64,000 nucleotides of DNA, taken from assembly GCA_026986775.1 (NCBI GenBank), contig JALSNX010000004.1, positions 471 to 64,470 on the forward strand, read 5' to 3'. Made by a program: the position numbers and the translations under genes. The notes beneath the pieces are model-generated. The model was given only the letters and a program-made list of their open reading frames with translations. It was not told the origin of the DNA and did not search any database. Position 1 is the first letter of the stretch; each line of letters begins with the position of its first letter. Source of the stretch: a candidate division WOR-3 bacterium. GTDB taxonomy: Bacteria > Hydrothermota > Hydrothermia > UBA1063 > CAJXJZ01. Positions 1 through 35,438 of this stretch are shown here, piece by piece.

Positions 1-1829
1 CCTACAAGTGCCAATTGAGTGAATCTATTTATGAAATAGAACAACTTTACGTCGCTATGCAAATTCCTCTGATTAAACTCATACTTAACATACGGCTTGA
101 TATATAAGTGTTTTATAATAGGTATTTCACCCCATAGTTGAAGCAATGTGGTATCCGCCTGTCCAGATACCATCTTTTTATTAATACTATAGGATATTGT
201 AGATTCTAATAAAAATAGATCCCCCCTGACACTTACGAAAATATCTTTTTCCCCAAGTGATTTAAATACATATATGTTAAAATTTCCAAATACTCCGCTT
301 TTTCCCACAGCAGCCTCCACGCCTTCACTAACTTCATTTACTCCAAAAACATTTCTTCTGAATCCACTTCGTATAAAAATATTAGTCGGTATTATCAATT
401 GTACATTAAGATTTGATGTGGAAAAAATGTCTTCACCTGTTGACCTAACTCCTATTTTTCTGTAGTACCCTATAACTGAAGCTCTTATAGACTGGTTTTT
501 ACTGTTTACCCAGCTATAACTACCATAAAAGTCGTATATAAGTTTATTGTTATACCACATTTTCCCTATTGGTGATATTAAGTTGGAATCGGTAATCATG
601 TAAGATGTTCCAAAAGACAGACCAGGATAAACATTTCTGCTTATATTTATAGACATACCTCTACTACCATTACGGGCGTGCACTGCACCTTCAATAGAAA
701 CAAACGTATTTAATTCGTTTATGTATTTCCTGAGTCCAGCGCACAACATAGGTACGCTGTCATCATAAAACCCACGAAAATATGGGTTAGGTAAATTACC
801 ATCCGGATATATATTCACTCCTATTCCTTTGAATCGTCTTTCTGTATTATACCGGGTGTATAATCCATAAACGGAAAAATACCTATTCTCTACATTTCCT
901 TTAATGCCCAGTTTAACTGTATCTATATTACGGGTATAGAATAGGGGAAGGTCAAAGGAGAAATTCTTGGCACCTTCCAGAAAAAATTTCCTTTTTTCCG
1001 GAAAATATCGGGGTTCAACAGACAGGTCAAAGGATACAACATCCGCATCTATAGTGGAAAAATCTGGATTTATGCTTCCTTCAAATATAGTATTCTCGCT
1101 CATCTTAACTTCTATATTTCCTCCTATTTGTTTTTTGAGATTGCTATCCCTGCAATTTTTATTAACTCTTAGATATGGAAATAAATTTATCTTGAAAGCA
1201 CTCTGGCGAGTAACCGTGGAACCAAGAACTATTTTCTGCATGTTTTCAAGTCTCATAAATGGCTGATTGTAATTAGTGGCAACCATCACGTTATCATTGT
1301 GAAAATTCACACTTCCATTAATATAAAAGATTGAATCTTCAAAGAAAATCGTTTTAAATGGGATTACAAAAAGGGCAATCCATTTATTTCCTTCTATCAC
1401 TGCTCTATAATACCACAGTCCATCCCACTCTTTTGTAGAAAATCCATGCTGTGTTGTCATGAATTCGCTGTTACCACCGGAAGGTGAGCCGACAAAAACA
1501 TAAGCAAATTCTCTGGATTGATAAGTAGATAGCGTAAGCATAGCATAATCCCCCTGAAAAATAGCACTATTGTCAAATCCTTTAGATGACGACACCGGGA
1601 TAGTGGAATCTATCTCAATAATAAAGAGTAATGACTTATCGGTATAACCTGCATACCCCTTCACTTTATCAAATACTTTACTGGTGTCTGGTAATGGAAA
1701 AACTTTATAAAAGGCAATACTTTCGTTATATTTATAGTTCAATAAAAAACTATTCACAGTAGAATATTTATGAGCTACTACTGGTTTTAAGTATATCAGA
1801 GCAAAGAATATTGACTTAAACACTGTCAT
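1..1829 (-). CDS. DUF5916-like large envelope protein; C-terminus runs off the window edge
   Basis: Own minus-strand translation: open frame from ATG at 1829 (MTVFKSIFFALIYLK.., signal-like) to position 1. It is absent from the ORF track because no stop lies in the window. Contains VEPRYFPEKRKFFLEG, which resembles the DUF5916 family motif. ATGA start/stop overlap with the upstream ABC gene. Confidence 0.6.
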   Translation of the reverse strand, partial: MTVFKSIFFALIYLKPVVAHKYSTVNSFLLNYKYNESIAFYKVFPLPDTSKVFDKVKGYAGYTDKSLLFIIEIDSTIPVSSSKGFDNSAIFQGDYAMLTLSTYQSREFAYVFVGSPSGGNSEFMTTQHGFSTKEWDGLWYYRAVIEGNKWIALFVIPFKTIFFEDSIFYINGSVNFHNDNVMVATNYNQPFMRLENMQKIVLGSTVTRQSAFKINLFPYLRVNKNCRDSNLKKQIGGNIEVKMSENTIFEGSINPDFSTIDADVVSFDLSVEPRYFPEKRKFFLEGAKNFSFDLPLFYTRNIDTVKLGIKGNVENRYFSVYGLYTRYNTERRFKGIGVNIYPDGNLPNPYFRGFYDDSVPMLCAGLRKYINELNTFVSIEGAVHARNGSRGMSINISRNVYPGLSFGTSYMITDSNLISPIGKMWYNNKLIYDFYGSYSWVNSKNQSIRASVIGYYRKIGVRSTGEDIFSTSNLNVQLIIPTNIFIRSGFRRNVFGVNEVSEGVEAAVGKSGVFGNFNIYVFKSLGEKDIFVSVRGDLFLLESTISYSINKKMVSGQADTTLLQLWGEIPIIKHLYIKPYVKYEFNQRNLHSDVKLFYFINRFTQLALV

Positions 1830-3463
1830 AATAACCTCCTGTCTTCATCTGCATTTTTTAAAACTTCTGATCCTGTTATTTTTCCGTGATTTAATTTTAA
1901 TGTCCTGTCATGAAATAATTTAAGGTCATGGGATCTGTGGGCAACAGTTATGAGTGTATTTCCACCTATAAATTTTATAATTTTCTCGTATATAATGAGT
2001 GCTTCTTTGTAAGGTATATGTTCTATAGGTTCATCAAAAATGTAAACTTTTGCCTCCTTATACAGAGTGCGGGCAAGGAGTATTTTTTGTCTTTCTCCCT
2101 GTGAAAAATTTTTTCCGTTGACATCAATTAGATAATCAAGACCATATCTATCAAGGTCAAAATTAACAATATTAATTACTTCTCTTAACCTTTCATCCTT
2201 ATAACTCATATTAAACACTATGTTCTCAAGTAATGTTCCCTTAAACAAGGTTGCACTGTCTATAAACGCAGATATATCCTTGTATGGATTTACACAAAAG
2301 CGTACTTTTCCTTCCAAATTTTTAACGAAACCACAGAGAACCCGTAAAAGCATCGTTTTACCAGAACCGTTCTCACCTGTGATCAATATTTTTTCGCCAT
2401 GCTTTATGTTAAGATTAATCCTGTCAAGAACCCTTCTTTCTCCAATATTCATGGAAACGTTCATCAGATTCACAATACAACTGTCATCGCTGTCAGAAAC
2501 ATAAATTTCACTTGAGTTTTCAGTTTCTGCGAATTTATTTATTCTTTGAAACGCAGTGTAAGATTTCACAAGTCCTATCCTTAAATTCATTACACTTTGA
2601 ATAGGGTTTATCAGATAATTCTGCATACTCGTAAAGGCAAATAGTCCACCAGCTGTAAGTCTTCCCCTGTAAATTTCATACACTCCAAGAACAACGATGG
2701 AAACGGGTATAATATCTGTCAACATGTTCAAAATAACATCGTAAGAAAAAGCGTATTTTACATATTTATAGTATGCCTTAAAAACTTTATCAATTACCCT
2801 GTCAGTTTTATTAATAACTAATCCATTTTTATCATATAGTTTATACTCAAGTGGCATACCGGCTATATTGGTGAGTTGTTCTCTGGCTATAGCATCACTT
2901 TCCATAACCGGTTGCATATATACATTTAATGTTTTCTTCATCCTGCTGGTTACTAATATATAAATAGGGAGGTAAAAAAGAAGTATAACCGTGAGTTTAA
3001 CGGATATAAATAGGAGTGCAAAGATACCAAACACAAACAAGAGAATGCTTTTAAGCAATATTACATACATATCAAAGAAGATATCTCTCAAATCATCAGG
3101 TTCGTCATATACCCTTGATACTACGTATCCTTCTTTTTCGTGTGGATATCTGGCATGCTTTAGAAATTTCTGCATTAACGAAACTTTCACATCTTTGACA
3201 ATCTCAATCACCTTCCTTTCAAGCATAACATTTGACAGTAATCTTCCGGCTTCTCTCGCAAAGGTTATCAAGACTATTCCCATAGAAATCGTCACAAAAA
3301 GGCTTAGTTCATGTGAATAGACCGCACTATCAATCATTTTTTTAAAGAGAAATGGAACTGGAAGTTGCAATAAGGTTGTAATGAATATTATCAAGAATGC
3401 AATTAAATATGTGGATTTATATTGTTTTATTCTTGAAAAAGCAAAAACGAACAGTTCTTTCAT
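1826..3463 (-). CDS. ABC transporter, fused permease/ATPase (peptide-exporter type, no C39 peptidase domain)
   Basis: 545 aa. Hydrophobic N-terminal half. Walker A GENGSGKT, signature-like FSQGERQ, Walker B VYIFDEP, H-loop VAHR. 1-nt stop/start overlap with the rSAM gene. Confidence 0.85.
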   Translation of the reverse strand: MKELFVFAFSRIKQYKSTYLIAFLIIFITTLLQLPVPFLFKKMIDSAVYSHELSLFVTISMGIVLITFAREAGRLLSNVMLERKVIEIVKDVKVSLMQKFLKHARYPHEKEGYVVSRVYDEPDDLRDIFFDMYVILLKSILLFVFGIFALLFISVKLTVILLFYLPIYILVTSRMKKTLNVYMQPVMESDAIAREQLTNIAGMPLEYKLYDKNGLVINKTDRVIDKVFKAYYKYVKYAFSYDVILNMLTDIIPVSIVVLGVYEIYRGRLTAGGLFAFTSMQNYLINPIQSVMNLRIGLVKSYTAFQRINKFAETENSSEIYVSDSDDSCIVNLMNVSMNIGERRVLDRINLNIKHGEKILITGENGSGKTMLLRVLCGFVKNLEGKVRFCVNPYKDISAFIDSATLFKGTLLENIVFNMSYKDERLREVINIVNFDLDRYGLDYLIDVNGKNFSQGERQKILLARTLYKEAKVYIFDEPIEHIPYKEALIIYEKIIKFIGGNTLITVAHRSHDLKLFHDRTLKLNHGKITGSEVLKNADEDRRLL

Positions 3464-4800
3464 TAATCTCCATCAACCTTTGAATCGGCAGCCAAGATCA
3501 GAATATCGTGAATAGCAAATTTCCTGAAATCACATACTCTCTCTTTATCAACAATAACATTTTTAGCACATCCGCCGCTACATACAGGTAGCATATTACA
3601 TTCAGAACATTTTTCATCCCAGAATTCGTATCCAAGCCACTTCGTCTCTCTCGCTACATCCACTCCATTCCATATATCCCCAATTGAGTATTTTTTCATG
3701 CCCACAATATCCCAGCACTTCTGAAGGGAACCATCTGGTTCAATGAGGAGACTATCAGGAGTGGGTGCCATGCACAGAGAAAATTTAGGTTCAGGTATTA
3801 TATTCTCTGGCTTTATATGTTTATACTTTAAAAGTAGCGGTAATAAATACTGGCCATAAATCTTACCAAATTCTTCAGTAGTGAAGAGGTCACCATCAGA
3901 GAGAGTATAGGATGCTTCTTTCTCCCCTGTAACAAAGTAAGGATAGCAGGATAAATTGTAAGGATTTTTAACCTTGCTCCTGATTTGTAAATCAACATAT
4001 TGCAGAAGTTCTTCATAGTATTTGTATGTTTTTTTATTGAGATTGGATCTGCAATTTATGAAAAAATTATCTACATTGTCTAAAATATCTTTTATGTTTT
4101 TCATAATGACATTGAACGTTTTACCACCTCCTTTCAAGGGACGCATTATATTATGGACTTCTTCAGGTCCGTCCACAGTTATCTGAGCACTTATTAAATT
4201 AACCCTTTTATGTAGCTCCATAGCTAAATCTGGAGTAAGGAGATAACCATTTGTAACAATATCTGATCTAAACTCCATGTCCATCTGTGTGGCAATCTCT
4301 TTCAGTTTTTCTCCTATAAAAAATATTGCCTCTTTGTTTAAGAGTGGTTCCCCACCATAAAAAGTCAGTGAAAGAACTTTCTTTGGACGCGCTTTAATTC
4401 GTTTTTCTATAAAATTAACCACCATTTCCTGCGTTATTCTGTCCATATACTTGCCCCTGACACCATATTGAGCTTCATAACAATAAGGACAAGCAAAATT
4501 GCACCCCGTAGTGGTCAGGATAGTAAAACTATGTCTATCATTTGATCTCCATAGAGCATCAATCACTCTAAGATAGTAGTATTTAACTTCGTCAAACTCC
4601 GCTTCAACAATGAATCCTCCTTTTTTAAACTCTTCCAGTTTATCTTTATCATTGTACCACAAATCTTCGTTCTCATAAAATTTAGAAAAATCTTCTTCTA
4701 GAAGCACAAAAGCTCCTGTTAAAGAATTATATAGATATGCATTTCCATTTTTCTTAAAATACACATTAAACCTTGACCTTTTTAACATCTTCCCATTCAT
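3463..4800 (-). CDS. radical SAM/SPASM-domain peptide maturase candidate
   Basis: 445 aa. CNFACPYC (CX3CX2C) cluster motif, GGEPLL, C-terminal SPASM-type CSECNMLPVCSGGC plus upstream Cys pairs. N-terminal ~90 aa look like the peptide-recognition region of sacti/ranthipeptide-type maturases. Confidence 0.85.
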   Translation of the reverse strand: MNGKMLKRSRFNVYFKKNGNAYLYNSLTGAFVLLEEDFSKFYENEDLWYNDKDKLEEFKKGGFIVEAEFDEVKYYYLRVIDALWRSNDRHSFTILTTTGCNFACPYCYEAQYGVRGKYMDRITQEMVVNFIEKRIKARPKKVLSLTFYGGEPLLNKEAIFFIGEKLKEIATQMDMEFRSDIVTNGYLLTPDLAMELHKRVNLISAQITVDGPEEVHNIMRPLKGGGKTFNVIMKNIKDILDNVDNFFINCRSNLNKKTYKYYEELLQYVDLQIRSKVKNPYNLSCYPYFVTGEKEASYTLSDGDLFTTEEFGKIYGQYLLPLLLKYKHIKPENIIPEPKFSLCMAPTPDSLLIEPDGSLQKCWDIVGMKKYSIGDIWNGVDVARETKWLGYEFWDEKCSECNMLPVCSGGCAKNVIVDKERVCDFRKFAIHDILILAADSKVDGD

Positions 4801-4843
4801 AAATCTGTCCCCTTTTATGTCAATATTATAACATTAAATCAAT

Positions 4844-4864
4844 GGGAGTGCAAATTGCACTCCC
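4844..4864 (-). terminator. intercistronic stem-loop between precursor ORF and maturase (possible attenuator or RNA-stability element)
   Basis: Perfect 9-bp inverted repeat GGGAGTGCA / TGCACTCCC with a 3-nt loop, 19 nt after the peptide stop codon. The downstream U-tract on the minus strand is weak, so it is not a classic strong terminator. Confidence 0.45.
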
Positions 4865-4882
4865 ATTTTAGTATCTTTCGTT

Positions 4883-4999
4883 TTATTTAAATACCCTCTT
4901 TCCACACGGCGCCCACATATAACAGGCTCCACCATGGCATGTGCATACAGTGCCTTTTAACACCGCCTTCTCAGAAATCTTATGTTTTACCCAATACAT
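4883..4999 (-). CDS. putative RiPP precursor peptide, 38 aa, Cys-rich
   Basis: Internal ATG of the 115-aa track ORF, preceded by GGAGG (5007-5011) with a 7-nt spacer. Sequence MYWVKHKISEKAVLKGTVCTCHGGACYMWAPCGKRVFK, with C-x-C-x4-C-x5-C in the C-terminal half. Lies directly upstream of and co-oriented with the rSAM/SPASM gene. Confidence 0.55.
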   Translation of the reverse strand: MYWVKHKISEKAVLKGTVCTCHGGACYMWAPCGKRVFK

Positions 5000-5038
5000 T
5001 CTCTTTCCTCCTAACTCTTGGGTGACATTCCACAATTT

Positions 5039-6343
5039 GGGTGTTATCCTAAAAAGTGTGTCTGAGGTGGTATAAAATATAAGATAATGAAAAGAATTGA
5101 GGTAAAAAAGAGAAGGAGGTGTAAAATATGAGGGAGAAAAAGGATACAATGGTAAGGGGATTACTGGAGAAGGCCATGATGGCGAGGACGCATGAAGAAC
5201 TGGTATCATATTTACTCCAGGTGTTAGCATTATTAGAGAGGGATATATATCTTGAGATGAACACAGAGGACAAAGGTAACGGATTTAGGAACAGGAGATT
5301 GCATGCGGGGAGTCTAACGTATGAATTATACATACCGAGAACAAGAAAAGGTAATTTCAGACCTTCATTTTTGCCAGACAAATGGAAGAGGACAGTTGCA
5401 GATGACTTTATAAATCTTGCTTATTCTTTAATTTTATCTTCCAAATCTATAGAATCTGCAAAAAGAGCCATTAGAGAATTAAATCTTCCCTTGAGTGAGG
5501 AATACTTTGACAGGATATTAGAAGAATTACGAAAAGAATTCAAGGCCCTGAACAATGCTCCACTTTTACAGGATTGGTTTTCTCTTGTACTTGATGCAAA
5601 ACACACACAGATAATGATAGATGGACTGATAAAGCCATATGTAATATACACAGTTGTAGGAACAAGTCTTGAATGGGAAAGAAAAATTCTTTTGAGTTTA
5701 ATAAAAGAAGGCAATGAAAATATTGACATGTGGAAAAAAGTATTGGGCAACCTAATTTCAAGAGGCTTAAGAAGAGTCCTTATAATTACTCATGACGATT
5801 ATCCCGGATTATCAAAAACCATAGAAAGTTATTTTACCAGTACAGACGTCCAGCTATGCCTCGTTCACTTAATTAGAAACCTCAAAAGACATCTTACACC
5901 TTCTATGTTCACAAAAGCAAAAGAATACCTCCATTCCATAAAAAATGCAGTGTCGTACGAACACGGATTCAGTTTGTTTGAAGAAATGTTAAAAATAATA
6001 AGTGAAGAAAACCCTGATTACGCTAAAGAGATAGAAAGAAAAAAGAAGTTTTATCTTCCCTTCCTTAAATATCCCAAAGAGTTGAGAAAATCCCTGTATT
6101 CAACCAACCTCTTAGAAGGTATAAACAGAAAGATTGAAGATGCAGAAAAAATGAGCGGTGGTTATTTCCATTCACTTAAACACCTTGAAATAAAACTATC
6201 TCTGGTGTTTAAAGAACTACACACTGGTAGATGGAGTAAAACAATACCTCTTGTGGCCAAAGTTAAACATTTCCTCTATGCTGTTTTTCAGGAGAGATTC
6301 TATAATGATTAAACCGCAAGACACACTTTTCTTGACCGCCCCC
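5039..6343 (+). mobile_element. IS256-family insertion sequence (boundaries approximate)
   Basis: A single transposase ORF flanked by imperfect terminal inverted repeats: left GGGTGTTATCCTAAAAAGTGTGTCT, and the reverse complement of the right end GGGGGCGGTCAAGAAAAGTGTGTCT (core AAAAGTGTGTCT identical). Length ~1.3 kb fits the family. No target-site duplication seen. Confidence 0.7.
5128..6312 (+). CDS. IS256-family (Mutator-type) transposase
   Basis: 394 aa. RBS GAAGGAGG upstream. Family-typical region ITHDDYPGLSKTIESYF..VQLCLVHLIRNLKRHL and C-terminal STNLLEGINRKI. Confidence 0.85.
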   Translation: MREKKDTMVRGLLEKAMMARTHEELVSYLLQVLALLERDIYLEMNTEDKGNGFRNRRLHAGSLTYELYIPRTRKGNFRPSFLPDKWKRTVADDFINLAYSLILSSKSIESAKRAIRELNLPLSEEYFDRILEELRKEFKALNNAPLLQDWFSLVLDAKHTQIMIDGLIKPYVIYTVVGTSLEWERKILLSLIKEGNENIDMWKKVLGNLISRGLRRVLIITHDDYPGLSKTIESYFTSTDVQLCLVHLIRNLKRHLTPSMFTKAKEYLHSIKNAVSYEHGFSLFEEMLKIISEENPDYAKEIERKKKFYLPFLKYPKELRKSLYSTNLLEGINRKIEDAEKMSGGYFHSLKHLEIKLSLVFKELHTGRWSKTIPLVAKVKHFLYAVFQERFYND

Positions 6344-6885
6344 TCTGTATATCCAGCTTCATCCTCAATCCAATCGCTGTATGTCCTTATCCCTATCTCC
6401 CTCTTCAGTAAACCCCGGGTTTCGTCTTTGCTTTTGGCCTCACCTTCAATTTTTGACCCTTCTTGTATTTTTTAAGAACTCTGTCTATCGTCGCCCTTGA
6501 TACCTTCTTTAATTTCTCTCTCACACGAGGAGATATCTGTATGGAGTTTTCTATTTTTGGCAGAACAAAGGATATCATCGCCTTTAACCTTAAACTGCAA
6601 GGATAATCAAATACCGACCATATATACCTTAGTACCTCTGAAAACTCTTCGTCATATATCTTCCTCCTCCGCCTCTTTATTTTTATGTTAGGATCAGCTA
6701 CTAGCCTCACTCTCTTACCCTGCGCTGTAACAAATACTACCCTCTTACCCGCATTCCTCAGTAACCATGAGGCGTAAGAACATTCAAATCTGGGATTTTT
6801 CCTTTTTGGTCTTTGCTCTCCTGTATAATTTTGAATACCTCAATGTTAACTTCTTTCTGGTCATGAGATCCAACTCCTTATCCAT
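6344..6885 (-). pseudogene. decayed rve/DDE-type transposase N-terminal fragment, at least 2 frameshifts, 3'-truncated by the IS256 insertion
   Basis: ATG at 6885 gives MDKELDLMTRKKLTLRYSKLYRRAKTKKEKSQI then a stop. The next frame continues FECSYASWLLRNAGKRV..VADPNIKIKRRRRKIYDEEF.. (track ORF 6405..6710). A third frame continues LLKREIGIRTYSDWIEDEAGYTEG up to the IS256 end. Confidence 0.6.
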
Positions 6886-7333: not shown

Positions 7334-8710
7334 TTAAATGGATTTCTGAAAAGTGAGTTTTAATCCATTGAACCGTGGGGTTATCCTGCACATACCCCCA
7401 GAACACACAAGCCCACCCCTCTGTTTACCATAGAAAAGTGAAATATTACCGCCATTTATGTCCCAGGACACCTCAATTCCCGGCCATAAGTTTTCAAAGT
7501 TGTATCTCGGGATTTTTCTGGTAGCGTATTCAAAGAGGAATTGAATATTAAATCTCTCTGAAAGGTAAACTGTTGAGTTAAAAGTGGTTTTGAAATAATT
7601 TATACTGTCCTCCTTAAACCTGTCAATTCTTGAAAAGATTTCTATAGAAAGGGGAGAAATATCCAGATCGCTCTGAATATAAAGGTTTTTAAGATGCGTG
7701 TATTCTGGTTCAACTCTGAGTCTGTGTTCGTATCCGGACTTTATGGAGTAACTTATGTCCGTGGAATATATATCCGTTTGAAGATAAAATTCCTGAAAAG
7801 CCCTGTTAACATCGGGATTTATATAATTCGTTTCTTGAATATCAAATAGTCCTCCAGAACCGATTTCAATATTACCACGGGAAAATGGAATAAACAACGT
7901 AAAAGAGCCTCCCTTATCTGAATTTCCACCAGATGGAAGGATTTCTGTTTTGAGAGGGACGGGAGGAAGATTGAGATTGTAAAACTCAATTGAATCGTAT
8001 CTTGCAAGTTGTAAAAGAAAATTGAACTTTGCCGGCATGAACTCAACGGACACGAAAACCGCAGAGCCCTTCTTTCTGGTATATGTTATAAAATCCACAC
8101 CCCTTTTTAGTGCAAAATCCATTGATACGGAAATTTTCTTGCTGTTCATGACTATTTCACCTCCACCTATCTCAGAAAATGCATAGGGTGCCGGCATGTT
8201 CTTTCTGTTCAATCTAATATAACCTGCAGAAAAATCTACAGAACCATGCCCCATACTCAGTGAGATACCCCTTAAAATACTGGCTGTATCCTGTATGGGC
8301 GTATACGCCATTCCATCAAATTGAAGGTCATGTGGTGTGCCACTTATGGCAGAAAGAGAGGCATTCCTATGTCTCGCTATAATACTCAATCCCTTTATGT
8401 ATCTGAACCTTTTAAACTGTATATCATGAGTTTGATTAAGCAGGATTCCAGAAAGGAGGTTTTTTTGAAAATACCCGATTCCAATCTCCAGATTTTTTGT
8501 GTTCAAAGTTAACAAGGGAAAAAGGAGATACTTTCTGTGGGTGTTAAAGATATTGTCCTCTATGAGGTAGTCCGAAGAAAGGGAAAATACCTTTTCTCTC
8601 AGTAGAAGGCTTCCGAAAGACTCAAAATGCTCACTCAAACTGTCAGAATAAAGCCAGTACTCTGAATGAATATTGAAATTAATCTGAAGAAACAGGAACA
8701 GTATCCACAT
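7334..8710 (-). CDS. predicted outer-membrane beta-barrel protein (DUF6029-like)
   Basis: 458 aa, alternating beta-strand-like pattern. C-terminal GGLVCSGGMCRITPRFNGLKLTF resembles the conserved tail I recall for DUF6029 proteins. Start uncertain because it overlaps the upstream gene by 32 nt. Confidence 0.45.
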   Translation of the reverse strand: MWILFLFLQINFNIHSEYWLYSDSLSEHFESFGSLLLREKVFSLSSDYLIEDNIFNTHRKYLLFPLLTLNTKNLEIGIGYFQKNLLSGILLNQTHDIQFKRFRYIKGLSIIARHRNASLSAISGTPHDLQFDGMAYTPIQDTASILRGISLSMGHGSVDFSAGYIRLNRKNMPAPYAFSEIGGGEIVMNSKKISVSMDFALKRGVDFITYTRKKGSAVFVSVEFMPAKFNFLLQLARYDSIEFYNLNLPPVPLKTEILPSGGNSDKGGSFTLFIPFSRGNIEIGSGGLFDIQETNYINPDVNRAFQEFYLQTDIYSTDISYSIKSGYEHRLRVEPEYTHLKNLYIQSDLDISPLSIEIFSRIDRFKEDSINYFKTTFNSTVYLSERFNIQFLFEYATRKIPRYNFENLWPGIEVSWDINGGNISLFYGKQRGGLVCSGGMCRITPRFNGLKLTFQKSI

Positions 8711-9149
8711 TGCTTTTCAGACTATCAAGTATGCTTAAAAAGACTTTTTCATCTCTTGAGGAAAAACCAGTAAATCGCTTTACAAGATTTCCCTCGGTAT
8801 CATAGAGGAAAGAGGATGGCAGGGCCATAACCCCAAACTCCCGCATGAGTTTCTGCCTTTTATCTATGATAACAGGAAAGTTCCATTTGTGACCCTTAAC
8901 AAAGGACCCTACCCTTGACATCTTTCTCTTACCGTCTTCGTTTACAGCAACAACAAAGAAGTCTAAAGAATCCATCAATTTGTTGATTCTGTCAAGTTCC
9001 TTTATACACTGACTGCACCATAGTGCCCAGAAAGAGACGTAAACAGGCTTCTTCGTATATATTGTATCAAGGTTAATCGTCTCTTTATTCAGGGTGGTTA
9101 TGTCTTTTAGTGGAAAGGACAAAAACACAATAGCAAAAATCAGATTCAT
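8679..9149 (-). CDS. TlpA/ResA-like thiol-disulfide oxidoreductase
   Basis: 156 aa, signal-like N-terminus, thioredoxin motif WCSQC. Confidence 0.8.
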   Translation of the reverse strand: MNLIFAIVFLSFPLKDITTLNKETINLDTIYTKKPVYVSFWALWCSQCIKELDRINKLMDSLDFFVVAVNEDGKRKMSRVGSFVKGHKWNFPVIIDKRQKLMREFGVMALPSSFLYDTEGNLVKRFTGFSSRDEKVFLSILDSLKSNVDTVPVSSD

Positions 9150-9747: not shown

Positions 9748-10470
9748 TTAAAACCTCCTTTGTGTCACACTCAAAATGTTTTTATTGACCGTATCCTGAA
9801 TCATGGCAACAACAGTCTTGCCACTGAGGTAGTCTTTTTTAAAAGAAACACTCTGAGGCAGGTTTGAAGGAAGTAACAGGAGCTTTCTCACCACGTTATT
9901 GTATACAGAATCCTCAGCACCGCTTAACGCAAAGAACACAGAATCCTCTGTAATGGCAACGAAAAGTACACTGGTTGTCGTGTCAATACTCTGGAGAGAG
10001 TCACAATTAAATGTAATTAAGAGGCTATCTCCTGTGGTATCAAAAGAGATTATCAGATTTATTGAATCATTTAAGAGTCTAAGGCTCTTATAATAGGTGT
10101 CAAATTTCTCAATCTGTGCACTTTCATCGCTTTCTGCCCCATCTACACGATGCACACCCTGAATAATGGTAACTGGAGCCGCATTACTAATTGCATAAAG
10201 GATAGTTTTTAAATCTATATCTTCAGGACTTATCGTATCTCCTCCATCCCATCTCAGGTGGTATTCCAGTACAGCTATACTATCTCCATAAAGTTTTTTT
10301 AAAGAATCCACGGCGTGCTCAACTATTGGACAGTTCTGACATCTGGCATAACCGAAAACTTCAAACACAGGTATTATACTCTGCCCTGCCTCCTCTGCTG
10401 GTGGTTCTGGAACACGTGAGCAGGAAGAAATAGCAATGAATATAAAGAATGTCAGAAGGAAAATTCTCAT
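9748..10470 (-). CDS. thioredoxin-fold lipoprotein (Omp28-related-like)
   Basis: Start moved to M21 (MRIFLLTFFIFIAISSCS lipobox). CQNCP motif in the context EVFGYARCQNCPIVEHAV. Confidence 0.5.
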   Translation of the reverse strand: MRIFLLTFFIFIAISSCSRVPEPPAEEAGQSIIPVFEVFGYARCQNCPIVEHAVDSLKKLYGDSIAVLEYHLRWDGGDTISPEDIDLKTILYAISNAAPVTIIQGVHRVDGAESDESAQIEKFDTYYKSLRLLNDSINLIISFDTTGDSLLITFNCDSLQSIDTTTSVLFVAITEDSVFFALSGAEDSVYNNVVRKLLLLPSNLPQSVSFKKDYLSGKTVVAMIQDTVNKNILSVTQRRF

Positions 10471-32883: not shown

Positions 32884-33807
32884 TCACTTCAAAAGACCGT
32901 CAATTTTATTTAAAATTTCTTCTGGCATTATCCCTCTCAGACATCTTAAGTCTCCGTATTTACATTTTTTTTCTCCGTGAAGTGAACATGGTCTGCACTT
33001 TAAATCCTTTCGTTCAAACAAAAACACGGGCGCCTTTGATACTGGTCTGAAGCCAAATTCAGGAATTGTTGGACCGAAAATAACAAATAGTGGGGTATTG
33101 ACGGCTGCTGCAATATGTGCAGGCCCTGAGTCGTTTGAAAGAACAAGTTGGGAATATTTTATGGCATTGACTATATAGGAAAGCGGTTTCATACCAATTC
33201 TATTTATTATGTATGGTTTTTGGGGAAGCTCCATTTCCTCCGCACCCATGTACACTGAGGGAATATGGTATTTCTCAAATATGCTGCTGGATACCTTTAA
33301 AAAATACTCAAGGGGCCACATTTTTTGTCTTTGACTGGCTCCTGGAAAAACGGCTATGTATCTGTCTGGTAACCCTTCTACTTTAAAAAAGGGAAGTTTA
33401 AGAGAGGGTAATGGATAAGTTGTGTCGTCAAAGTATTTCTGCAGGGGGGTTACATAGAGTTTGTATAAAGGGACTTCTTTTATCCTTTTCTTAAACCATA
33501 CTGCCAGCCTTCTCTGGACAGGGCGTTTGTTGAACATGCATTTCTTTCTGGCCTTAACTTTAAAAAGCATGGAAAGTGTCTTTGGCTTGGCGTGGAGGTC
33601 ACAGGCCAGATCAAAGGGTTCGTTTCCTATTGCTTTCAGGTCTGATTCATCCAGAAGGCGTTCTATTCGGTTATCCTGGATAAAAAGCTCAAAATATTTT
33701 CTTTTTGTAATAAGTGTAACTTTACCCTTATCCTTCAGGTACTCAAGAGCGGATGTCATTATCACAATGTCTCCAAGGGCTGAGAGCCTTATAAGCAGGA
33801 TATTCAT
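32884..33807 (-). CDS. glycosyltransferase family 9 (LPS heptosyltransferase-like)
   Basis: 307 aa. MNILLIRLSALGDIV, NDSGPAHIAAA. Confidence 0.85.
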   Translation of the reverse strand: MNILLIRLSALGDIVIMTSALEYLKDKGKVTLITKRKYFELFIQDNRIERLLDESDLKAIGNEPFDLACDLHAKPKTLSMLFKVKARKKCMFNKRPVQRRLAVWFKKRIKEVPLYKLYVTPLQKYFDDTTYPLPSLKLPFFKVEGLPDRYIAVFPGASQRQKMWPLEYFLKVSSSIFEKYHIPSVYMGAEEMELPQKPYIINRIGMKPLSYIVNAIKYSQLVLSNDSGPAHIAAAVNTPLFVIFGPTIPEFGFRPVSKAPVFLFERKDLKCRPCSLHGEKKCKYGDLRCLRGIMPEEILNKIDGLLK

Positions 33808-35438
33808 CAGAACATCTCGCCTATTGCAATGTTTAAATGCACGTTGTTGAGTTCATGTATGGGAGAGGCGATGTCAAGTCTGATAGGTCCTGCGGGTGTG
33901 TAGAATCTGAGTCCTGCGCCCGGTGTCTGTATAAAATCATGCATACCTGTAAGAACATAAAAGTTGTCAAGGAAAAGAGCCATACCAAACCATCGTGTCA
34001 GTTTTCTCCGTATTTCCAGGTTGAAGAGTATGCCTCCATCAGTCATAATATAGTCTCTTCCGGTACCTCGCAAGCTACCATCTCCCCCTATTCTGAACTT
34101 TTCATCAAGAGGTATTGTGCTTGTAGTACCAAAGGGCTTCTGGTACATTAAGGTGTTGTGAAGTGCGAAAACATAACCTTCAATACTGTGGTATAAAGAT
34201 AAAGACAGATATCCACGTCTGAAGGAGAAATCACCTTTCAAGATCCCACCTGTTTCCTGGAGTTTTATCGTGTATTTTATTCCACGTGTTGGATAGAAGA
34301 AGTTATTTGTTCTATTTGCACTGAAGGTAATAATGGCAGTGTTTGATATACCGTGTTCGTCTCTTCCCATACTGAGATTTTTCCAGCCTATGAAAAATCT
34401 CAGTATTGAGTAGTTGCTTAATCTTTTCCCTAAAGATACATCAAAACCATAAAGCTCATTTCCCAGTTCATAGTCCCTTACATAAAAAGGATGGGTCTGA
34501 AAAGAGAGTTTTTCCCCAAGAAAAAGAGGTTCTGTGTAATAGATTTCCACCTTTCTGCGAAGTGGATATTTTATGGACCTGAGAAACTCATACTGGATGG
34601 TTATTTTTTGTGCATTACCAAAGATGTTGTCATGTCCGAGCCTGAAGGTGCCGTGAAACTCCTCGGGTATATTGTATCCACCTGATAGACGCACAAATCG
34701 TGAAGGTGATGGGGTTGCCCTTATTATTACGGTAAGGGTTGAGTCGGATGTTTCTTTCAGGGAATAGGTGGTACCCTCATAAATACCAAGAGCATTTATT
34801 TCCCTGAGACTCTTCAGTATGAGTTCACGTGAAAAAAACTGCCCCCTTTTAATGAGTATAACCTTCTTTATGAGAGCACTCCTGACACCAGGTACTCTTT
34901 CAATATGAACGGAGTCTATAATGTACCTTTTTCCAGTGCGTACGCGTATGTCCACATCCACAGTATGGGAGGATTTGTCGGGTATGACAGAGTCAGTTAT
35001 ACTGACAAATGGATATCCACGGTTTGCATAGAAGCGGATTATATAGTCTTCAATTTCTCCCAAAAGTTCGTATGAGAAATAACCTTTAATATTTCTGTGT
35101 TTTAAAACAGAGGTCTCCTTTAAAACCTTCTCTGGATGTATGTTGATCTTGTTGACAATATAGCGCTTTTCCTCTTTTACTTCAAGTATTATGTTTACCT
35201 TCGTTTTCTTGAATTCTATTTTCTTTTCAGCCACACTGACGTCAAAAAAACCGTATCCTCTGTAAAGGTCAATTATTCCTGCTTCTCTACTGCGCAAGTA
35301 CAGGAGATTGTATGGTGTACCTTTTTTGATGGAGAGGATTTTTTTTAACTCTCTTGCAGAGAAGAAATTTGAACCTTCAATTTTGATGCTATTGAATCTT
35401 AATAATGCTGATACCAGAAGAAGAAATAGGGTATGCAT
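33807..35438 (-). CDS. BamA/TamA-family outer-membrane protein (POTRA + Omp85 barrel)
   Basis: 543 aa. POTRA-like N-terminus (I.I.G......EL), FRIGGDGSLRG, C-terminal ..IAIGEMF. Confidence 0.8.
   Translation of the reverse strand: MHTLFLLLVSALLRFNSIKIEGSNFFSARELKKILSIKKGTPYNLLYLRSREAGIIDLYRGYGFFDVSVAEKKIEFKKTKVNIILEVKEEKRYIVNKINIHPEKVLKETSVLKHRNIKGYFSYELLGEIEDYIIRFYANRGYPFVSITDSVIPDKSSHTVDVDIRVRTGKRYIIDSVHIERVPGVRSALIKKVILIKRGQFFSRELILKSLREINALGIYEGTTYSLKETSDSTLTVIIRATPSPSRFVRLSGGYNIPEEFHGTFRLGHDNIFGNAQKITIQYEFLRSIKYPLRRKVEIYYTEPLFLGEKLSFQTHPFYVRDYELGNELYGFDVSLGKRLSNYSILRFFIGWKNLSMGRDEHGISNTAIITFSANRTNNFFYPTRGIKYTIKLQETGGILKGDFSFRRGYLSLSLYHSIEGYVFALHNTLMYQKPFGTTSTIPLDEKFRIGGDGSLRGTGRDYIMTDGGILFNLEIRRKLTRWFGMALFLDNFYVLTGMHDFIQTPGAGLRFYTPAGPIRLDIASPIHELNNVHLNIAIGEMF

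Follow-up and report, generated by a model that had tools for sequence, protein, structure and literature searches.

What is the task of a predicted outer-membrane barrel protein that is encoded directly behind a peptide-modifying enzyme and its exporter? The question is raised by the left end of a 64,000-nucleotide stretch of DNA (hereafter the window; positions 471 to 64,470 of the forward strand of contig JALSNX010000004.1) from a candidate division WOR-3 bacterium. Four genes found here encode a short Cys-containing peptide, a radical S-adenosylmethionine (rSAM) enzyme with a SPASM domain, an ATP-binding cassette (ABC) half-transporter and a large DUF5916-like protein. The original prediction, made from the letters of the DNA, took them for a translationally coupled cluster for a peptide that is synthesized ribosomally and modified post-translationally (RiPP) in a diderm, with a last gene serving in outer-membrane passage, immunity or reception. 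Here, the operon is proposed to make and export small Cys-cross-linked RiPPs in a form specific to WOR-3, with the barrel as the outer-membrane route. We give this proposal a probability of roughly 0.55. The RiPP assignment within it is solid, and for the barrel we infer export as the most likely role.

The predicted gene order and the location of all four genes on the minus strand were confirmed by the listing of open reading frames (ORFs), and both reported junctions were verified on the letters (coordinates are collected in Table 1). The maturase stop codon TAA shares its last A with the ATG of the ABC gene (TAATG, 3463; junction GGAGATTAATGAAAG), and the barrel ATG overlaps the TGA of the ABC gene (ATGA, 1826-1829; junction AGGAGGTTATTATGACAG). 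The AGGAGG Shine-Dalgarno sequence of the barrel gene sits inside the ABC gene. Translational coupling, which had been extended to the cluster as a whole, holds for these three overlapping genes; the precursor gene is not coupled, as 82 nt and a hairpin intervene between it and the maturase gene.

The first of the three overlapping genes encodes the enzyme. A Pfam search matched it to Radical_SAM (PF04055, E 1.6e-18) and Fer4_12, and its SPASM domain scored 53 bits with TIGR04085 (cut-off 27). The cysteines of the CxxxCxxC motif (C100, C104, C107) are invariant in 70 relatives, and seven SPASM cysteines (C343, C362, C398, C401, C407, C411, C423) are invariant as well. An AlphaFold2 model with a predicted local distance difference test (pLDDT) score of 94.9 consists of an N-terminal unit, an rSAM barrel and a SPASM domain. 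The N-terminus of the model (about residues 1-85, pLDDT >90) resembles a RiPP recognition element (RRE), with strands at 12-17, 20-25 and 30-34 and helices at 36-43, 52-60 and 71-85; the Pfam PqqD model found no match in the protein. The best full-length models were CefB (NF038107; 208 bits, cut-off 600), Clo7bot (TIGR04334; 207, cut-off 600), TIGR04463 (204, cut-off 525), geopeptide (TIGR04280; 200, cut-off 400) and FlmE/OhkG (NF052473; 176, cut-off 500). Lower scores were obtained for PapB (119 bits), the SCIFF maturase (89) and the anaerobic sulfatase maturase (85, cut-off 349). Because every score lies far below the respective family cut-off, the maturase is considered a member of no curated family. 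When the Protein Data Bank (PDB) was searched with a profile of the six closest relatives, CteB (5wgg) was found at E 4e-27 and the anaerobic sulfatase-maturating enzyme (anSME) at 7e-19. The fold comparison gave a template-modelling (TM) score of 0.67 for both the thioether synthase CteB and TigE, two peptide maturases with an RRE, over the full length including the N-terminal domain, and of 0.56-0.58 for anSME. Thus, the nearest enzymes are peptide maturases (CefB, Clo7bot, CteB) and not sulfatase maturases, as had been predicted, and no sulfatase gene is present within the cluster. Classification as an RRE-rSAM-SPASM peptide maturase of the CteB/CefB/Clo7bot type is solid as far as the RiPP assignment goes.

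What would this enzyme act on? The precursor gene encodes MYWVKHKISEKAVLKGTVCTCHGGACYMWAPCGKRVFK, with the leader MYWVKHKISEKAVLKGTV and the core CTCHGGACYMWAPCGKRVFK. Its ATG is an internal start within a longer, mechanically listed ORF and is preceded by the Shine-Dalgarno sequence GGAGGA at 5011-5006, where 5011 is also the right-hand end that had been given to the cluster. The orthologue in the related locus L002, MHWIKKQLSDDNVIRRDNVCTCHSGGCYMWTLCGRRVFK, has kept the core with a divergent leader. Members of the precursor family are 31-60 aa long, with a leader of the form M-x-W/Y/H-[ILVMH] and a core of the form C-x-C-(x4-5)-C. Within the window's clade, the upstream peptides start with M-[KYHR]-W-[IVMH] and carry C-x-C-x-G-x(2,3)-C about 17-25 residues in, with the core variants CTCHGGAC, CTCHSGGC, CRCNGPGAC and CKCYGTGVC; the sole exception is the second L002 peptide, which carries CGC only. 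Upstream precursor genes stand in tandem in L002 (four) and L014 (three), and one is found in the window. Frame, Shine-Dalgarno sequence, leader and Cys motif of these small ORFs are retained across maturase identities of 38-80%. When the window and the first of the related loci were scanned for MxW... plus CxC(x3-6)C, the pattern came up only beside such clusters. No Pfam or NCBIfam precursor family was matched by the window peptides. Leaders of the type MKWLNEP.../MNWIQ... recur beside maturase relatives of 33-34% identity, and the peptide of one of these (L178, 33%) weakly matches CefA (E 1e-4). The L005/L009 lineage has two maturase-ABC pairs, and the first of them has a separate, different precursor (MKIIKRPVT...DGCCHGYRRAK).

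The product of the third gene combines a six-helix membrane domain (PF00664, residues 20-287) with a nucleotide-binding domain (PF00005, 346-480). It aligns over its full length with Sav1866 (residues 9-553). Alignment with PCAT1 (4ry2) covers residues 164-701 of the latter, the PCAT model TIGR01193 is joined from position 151, and the LssB and HlyB models are likewise aligned past their peptidase domain. Since the alignments to PCAT-type models begin only at about residue 150-164, past the peptidase domain, the prediction of an exporter that lacks a C39 domain was borne out; the protein opens straight with its membrane domain. The protease gene that had been reported missing from the cluster is not conserved in any related locus either. 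No membrane-fusion protein (MFP) or TolC-type factor was found inside the cluster in any locus; a set of RND and OEP genes near L002 lies on the opposite strand and is not conserved in the other loci. Without a membrane-fusion protein and a TolC-type channel, the cluster is not a type I secretion system.

The last gene runs off the edge of the window, and the full-length protein of 637 aa (P0121) was taken from a longer contig with an identical maturase. Its assignment as DUF5916-like was upheld with 30.4 bits (Pfam cut-off 22.6), though only profile positions 4-94 of 572 are covered; P0123 and P0125 of the same subfamily fall below the DUF5916 gathering score. An AlphaFold2 model built with 76 homologues (pLDDT 85, predicted TM score 0.84) has an N-terminal helix that would be a signal peptide; a beta-sandwich follows at about 17-200, and the stretch from 213 to 631-637 forms about 24 strands. 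Residues D256, D263, P277, E278, R280, F282, F283 and R300 are invariant over the 76 sequences. They lie in the DUF5916 signature loop (254-304), 50 residues without strand structure that separate strands 3 and 4 of the model. Foldseek searches of the PDB returned only outer-membrane barrels, namely LptD, the FimD/PapC ushers, TonB-dependent receptors, Occ porins and AlgE, at TM scores of 0.3-0.37. The N-terminal beta-sandwich was matched to a solved CBM9 domain (7nwn, TMt 0.60), and the CBM9_1 hidden Markov model (PF06452) had no match there. No solved structure related to the barrel by sequence was found. The N-terminus is signal-peptide-like, and the C-terminal strand is rich in aromatic residues (C-termini ...FQLYFQLI/F). 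The model predicts with high confidence that the last gene encodes a secreted beta-sandwich followed by an outer-membrane barrel of about 24 strands. The predicted diderm nature of the host is supported: an Omp85/POTRA gene lies at 33807-35438 of the window, and LpxK and Omp85 genes are present in related WOR-3 loci, so the host has an outer membrane.

How constant is the association of the barrel with the maturase? The order maturase, ABC gene, barrel gene was found at maturase identities of 80% (L002-L004), 61% (L005, L009-L011), 57% (L006, L014-L017) and 38% (L007, L008, L110, L113, L116). A lack of peptide, ABC and DUF5916 neighbours beside orthologous maturases had been named as what would speak against the prediction; wherever the flanks reach far enough, maturase relatives at 35% identity or more all have these neighbours in the same order. 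Each relative at 38-80% has a C39-less ABC gene, a DUF5916-like gene for 640-652 aa and upstream Cys-rich peptides, and all source-named proteins of these clusters come from candidate division WOR-3. Recurrence of this order in at least seven distinct lineages among the related loci compared argues that the arrangement is not due to chance. A reverse search starting from the barrel returned the same clusters. The close barrel subfamily amounts to six clusters at 90% identity; at 50% identity, four representatives of it were found in 1.84 billion proteins, and the barrel alignment, run against metagenomes, contributed few further close members. Scores drop from >1000 bits inside the subfamily to about 140 and below outside it, and the wider DUF5916 family gave 4485 hits at E up to 0.001. 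At 33-34% identity (L178, L181, L183), maturase relatives are accompanied by peptides and an ABC exporter and by no barrel; a second ABC-type ATPase gene, which may serve immunity, lies in L181 and L183 beside a gene with no Pfam match. Among the matches listed, 80 loci of many phyla whose maturase shows at most 31% identity lack a DUF5916-like gene in the surrounding 8 kb. No rSAM gene adjoins the ordinary DUF5916 loci.

Variants of this arrangement were also found. A single barrel gene lies in or next to a locus with two maturase-ABC pairs in L009 (2057-9935), L005 (351-8253) and L007 (8001-16857). Locus L104 (440-4395) consists of a 151-aa LanC-like fragment (PF05147, E 9e-10), an ABC exporter and a 646-aa short-form barrel, to which eight of the short-form barrel representatives from the exhaustive search lie closest. 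In locus L147 (580-4985), an rSAM gene is followed by six Cys-rich peptides in tandem (MEFILKP...C x5 C x4 C...), then by an ORF of 164 aa with no family match and by a barrel gene for 643 aa; no ABC gene lies in between.

A further small gene is found beyond the barrel gene. A 60-aa ORF, MKWLKKTVAALLSFSGCSSKKDKEPTHCGAYSCSCVGTNVCNVV..., begins 34 nt past the barrel stop in L001 (14920-15102), immediately beyond the window's left end. It comes with a Shine-Dalgarno sequence (AAGGAGG), and its product starts like a leader (MKWLKK) and contains the lipobox-like LSFSGC as well as the motif CSCVGTNVC. Comparable ORFs trail the barrel gene by 9-73 nt in L001, L002, L005, L006/L014, L007, L110, L113, L116 and L012, and L104 is the only locus with downstream sequence where none does. 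Both upstream peptides and the trailing peptide carry the identical core CGCFLxxC in the 38% clade, and the trailing peptide is the only motif-bearing peptide found near the orthologous maturase of the L005/L009 lineage. Because of the shared core, this sole L005/L009 motif peptide and the recurring MKWL/MNWI leaders, the trailing ORF is marked as a putative precursor paralogue. It was read at first as a lipoprotein gene. A PROSITE-style lipobox rule is obeyed by the trailing ORFs of L001, L006 and L005 and not by those of L002, L009 (reconstructed sequence), L012 and all members of the 38% clade, and matches to lipoprotein models were at chance level. The lipoprotein reading was downgraded to a minority possibility after hydrophilic paralogues with the same core appeared. 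A search of 5.8 billion proteins found three relatives of the trailing peptide. Two local observations concern this ORF. Its L009 copy (9930-10150) differs from the L005 copy (8250-8480) by a one-base frameshift within the run that codes for KWLKK, which may be a sequencing error or real decay; the L005 copy starts with GTG immediately past a stop codon.

Taken together, these components suggest the following course of events. The RRE of the maturase would bind the MxW leader. A 5'-deoxyadenosyl radical would then link Cys sulfur to carbon within the CxC...C core, giving thioethers of the sactionine or ranthionine type, by analogy with CteB, PapB and QhpD, whose chemistry is the nearest to be characterized. 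The ABC dimer would carry the product across the inner membrane. With the help of the DUF5916-like barrel, the product would cross the outer membrane or be displayed there, and neither a membrane-fusion protein nor a TolC-type channel would take part. The leader would be kept or be cut off by an unlinked protease.

Does the barrel let the product out, protect its maker or take something in? The evidence leans toward passage. Within the loci examined, the barrel is confined to the WOR-3 forms and the more distant relatives lack it; the barrel gene overlaps the exporter stop codon, and an ABC-barrel pair also follows the LanC-like fragment in L104. One barrel for two maturase-ABC pairs (L005/L009, L007) is as expected of a common outer-membrane conduit. 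A different explanation, unlikely in our view and yet the most likely of the rivals, is that the barrel is no export route and acts in self-protection at the outer membrane (for example, as a resistant copy of the target) or as a receptor for peptide uptake or sensing, be it in signalling or as part of a metal carrier. Two loci of one lineage, L012 (7730-10188) and L013 (779-3240), keep an intact 644-aa barrel gene and the trailing ORF; the maturase gene is lost, and of the ABC gene only the final ~80 codons remain, directly upstream of the barrel gene. This was found in several samples and is hence decay rather than an assembly accident, and the pattern is typical of an orphan immunity or receptor gene. 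An ordinary CBM9+DUF5916 gene is also present on the L012 contig, hence a paralogous "target" exists, and the resistant-target version is further favoured by how common ordinary DUF5916 proteins are in these phyla. The Cys/His-rich core CTCHGGAC could bind metal, and the likeness of the barrel to TonB-dependent receptors is about equal to its likeness to exporters. Yet the gene for the supposed receptor or immunity factor shares the operon of the exporter in every intact locus, with the overlap described above, and a single copy serves two maturase-ABC pairs. The barrel is missing at 33-34% maturase identity, where two loci have the second ABC-type ATPase instead, and neither a TonB box nor a plug domain was detected in it by Pfam.

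The trailing ORF opens another, rather improbable explanation, in which no free peptide is secreted as end product: the small protein with its lipoprotein-like N-terminus (MKWLKKTVAALLSFSGCSS...) is cross-linked by the maturase and becomes a partner or plug of the barrel, as LptE does for LptD, with the upstream peptides as paralogous variants. The constant position of the ORF at every locus with downstream sequence but L104, the decayed L012 included, would fit such a partner, as would the lipobox found in L001, L006 and L005 and the N-terminus, which is the best-conserved part of the trailing protein in the window's clade; LptD is moreover the top fold match of the barrel. That match is weak (TM about 0.3), however, the hydrophobic stretch is merely 8-10 residues long, the lipobox fails in the other loci named, where the 38% clade has a precursor paralogue with a hydrophilic leader, and the MKWL start is also the family leader in barrel-less relatives. 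Could the rSAM enzyme instead modify a protein or a cofactor, with the small ORFs present by chance? Some SPASM enzymes do lie outside RiPP biosynthesis, the structural kinship with anSME is clear (TM 0.56-0.58) and the maturase reaches no curated family cut-off. We nonetheless consider this close to negligible: anSME scores 85 bits and the peptide maturases about 205, no sulfatase gene is nearby, an RRE-like domain is present that anSME does not have, and the small ORFs are conserved across the 38-80% lineages and found only beside these clusters. Export of a cross-linked RiPP through the barrel, which we prefer to these explanations, has points of its own to answer, apart from the decayed loci. 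A short-form relative in L162 has ordinary metabolic neighbours and no RiPP genes in 4.9 kb upstream. The barrel is only weakly similar to translocons of solved structure (TM of 0.37 or less), no periplasmic adaptor joins it to the ABC protein, and the literature searched holds no precedent for DUF5916 proteins as peptide channels. The type of cross-link is suggested by mostly uncharacterised relatives, and TigE, a C-C bond former, equals CteB as a fold match. The maturase reaches about 200 bits where every curated family has a cut-off of 400-600. The original prediction had already remarked on the want of a candidate for leader removal, and no protease gene is conserved in any locus.

The preferred reading can be extended further. 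As a tentative proposal, to which we give somewhat less than even odds, the short-form DUF5916 branch may be a new outer-membrane translocon for modified peptides that works with a plain ABC exporter and without MFP or TolC, the trailing gene supplying a dedicated partner or substrate. If true, diderms would have a new way of secreting peptides, and a family that counts thousands of members would gain its first function. For DUF5916, a widespread family with no literature, the cluster provides a first functional context. Literature searches for DUF5916, OhkG, FlmE and Clo7bot found no paper, and the four families are unmentioned in PMC10288494; the one paper found to name WOR-3, radical SAM and RiPP together deals with an unrelated matter. 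The product is likely a new cross-linked scaffold, because peptides and maturase fall outside every curated family. We know of no cultured, genetically tractable members of WOR-3; heterologous reconstitution is for this reason a realistic way in.

How might the operon be controlled? The hairpin in the spacer between precursor and maturase genes has a predicted free energy (dG) of -19.7 kcal/mol and a z score of -6.2. It is kept in L002 (dG -23.0) with a compensatory change from A-U to G-C (GGGAGTGC/GCACTCCC vs GGGGGTGC/GCACCCCC). Hairpins of unrelated sequence occupy the same position in L014, L007 and L110, and in L007 and L110 the maturase Shine-Dalgarno sequence forms the 3' arm. The hairpin is probably an attenuator or a transcript-stabilising element. 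From what is generally known of RiPP and bacteriocin operons, it would presumably fit control of the precursor-to-enzyme ratio. A sigma70-like TTTGCA-18-TATAAT site at 4854-4825 on the minus strand overlaps the hairpin. L002 likewise has a -35/-10 pair between hairpin and maturase start (about 7940-7975), and TATAAT is conserved between L002 and the window. To judge by its sequence, the site may serve the three genes for enzyme and transport as a second promoter, and could matter here because the upstream region was removed by an insertion sequence (IS).

The cluster had been described as lying next to two IS elements. One of them was confirmed as an IS256-family transposase gene (transpos_IS256, 207 bits, cut-off 150). 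The second could not be confirmed; the ORF at 6405-6710 matches no transposase model. Upstream of the maturase, blastn detects homology of the window to L002 over 4808-5040 only, and this homology ends exactly at 5040. The letters up to this point encode a remnant, ...PNCGMSPKS*, that aligns with the end of the third L002 precursor, ...CPNCGLSPKS*. Since the homology stops inside the orthologue of the third precursor, the precursor array was cut at the edge of the IS-bearing DNA. An IS256-linked event appears to have removed most of an upstream tandem precursor gene, leaving one upstream and one trailing precursor. The maturase, ABC and barrel ORFs are intact despite the truncation. No terminal inverted repeats of the element and no second copy in the window were found, so the break in homology at 5040 is the sole marker of where the IS ends.

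Table 1. Features at the left end of the window, with coordinates counted from its first letter.
Feature	Position	Strand	Details
Precursor gene	4883..4999	-	38 aa, coordinates include the stop; ATG 4999-4997, stop 4885-4883
Second-precursor remnant	5011..5040	-	Last 9 codons and stop (...PNCGMSPKS*); pairwise alignment to the third L002 precursor (pep3), blastn
Hairpin, 12-bp stem	4841..4867	-	Between precursor stop and maturase start
Radical SAM/SPASM peptide maturase gene, 445 aa	3463..4800	-	Pfam, NCBIfam, AlphaFold2, PDB profile search
ABC half-transporter gene, 545 aa	1826..3463	-	ABC_membrane and ABC_tran, no C39 peptidase domain
DUF5916-like predicted outer-membrane barrel gene	1..1829	-	First 609 of 637 codons; runs off the window edge
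IS256-family transposase gene	5128..6312	+	Neighbour, outside the system; Transposase_mut E 7e-46

Is the cluster accessory DNA, as its position beside the transposase gene had suggested? Its GC content is 0.343 (1-5011) vs 0.404 for 7001-64000, and the GC content at third codon positions is about 0.30 vs 0.36-0.40. A GC dip of 4-5 points is also present in the L002, L014 and L009 clusters, and the flanking genes differ in every lineage compared. By these signs an accessory or mobile nature is plausible, not proven; only this copy adjoins an IS. Beyond the cluster, synteny of the window with L002 is unsupported, the Tricorn-like genes being only 26% identical. Some features of the neighbourhood may be recorded here. 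The interval from the IS256 gene to a cold-shock protein gene holds short minus-strand ORFs for basic, DNA-binding-like proteins (6405-6710 and 6784-6885), with an 18-nt near-perfect inverted repeat beside them (6886-6903/6912-6929). Further on, a 458-aa DUF6029 protein is encoded at 7334-8710 (minus strand), of which only the C-terminal 50 residues match the profile. Its gene overlaps a thioredoxin-like gene (8679-9149), and the protein may be another uncharacterised envelope protein.

How does the system compare with those already known? By analogy, it would work like an rSAM RiPP cluster of the sactipeptide or ranthipeptide type. The thioether systems CteB/SCIFF and PapB are alike in having an RRE-rSAM-SPASM enzyme with a seven-Cys SPASM domain and a short Cys-rich precursor that adjoins it. 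The window maturase differs in scoring only 89 (SCIFF) and 119 (PapB) bits, far below the cut-offs; leader and core of SCIFF are unrelated to the window precursor, and the diderm host, the dedicated barrel gene and the trailing precursor gene set the window system apart from both. Greater likeness is found to CefA/CefB (Cys-every-fifth), Clo7bot, TIGR04463 and geopeptide, which supply the best maturase models (200-208 bits) and have tandem short Cys-rich precursors. The MxW[IL] leader start is common to the window peptides and the 33-34% relatives, whereas the CxC(x4-5)C core of the window differs and no precursor model was matched. To our knowledge, no chemistry has been published for these families.

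The barrel can be compared with three groups of proteins. It shares with the CBM9-like and DUF5916 proteins (PF06452 + PF19313) the signature loop, the domain order and a Pfam match above the cut-off; the ordinary members have 700-800 aa and the short form 637-652 aa, and the match extends over no more than the first 94 of the 572 positions in the profile. LptD/LptE and FimD have a periplasmic N-terminal beta-sandwich with a barrel of 24-26 strands, and a small gene trails the barrel gene, as in the cluster; with TM scores of 0.3-0.37 and no sequence relationship, this is an analogy only. Type I secretion, as for colicin V or darobactin (DarBCD), likewise employs an exporter-fold ABC protein, homologous to PCAT, HlyB and LssB, and has two membranes to cross. 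The window system differs from it by the lack of C39 and of an MFP gene, and by a barrel with a periplasmic beta-sandwich in place of a TolC-type trimer. The usual arrangement of RiPP clusters in Bacteroidales is PCAT-MFP-outer-membrane protein (PMC10352776). The cluster described here has a non-TolC outer-membrane protein that is fixed in its operon across deep divergence and gone in relatives of other genomic contexts. We know of few systems in which the crossing of the outer membrane by a diderm RiPP is understood, all of them with TolC-type machinery, and next to these the WOR-3 cluster offers a testable case for a new component of secretion, or of immunity.

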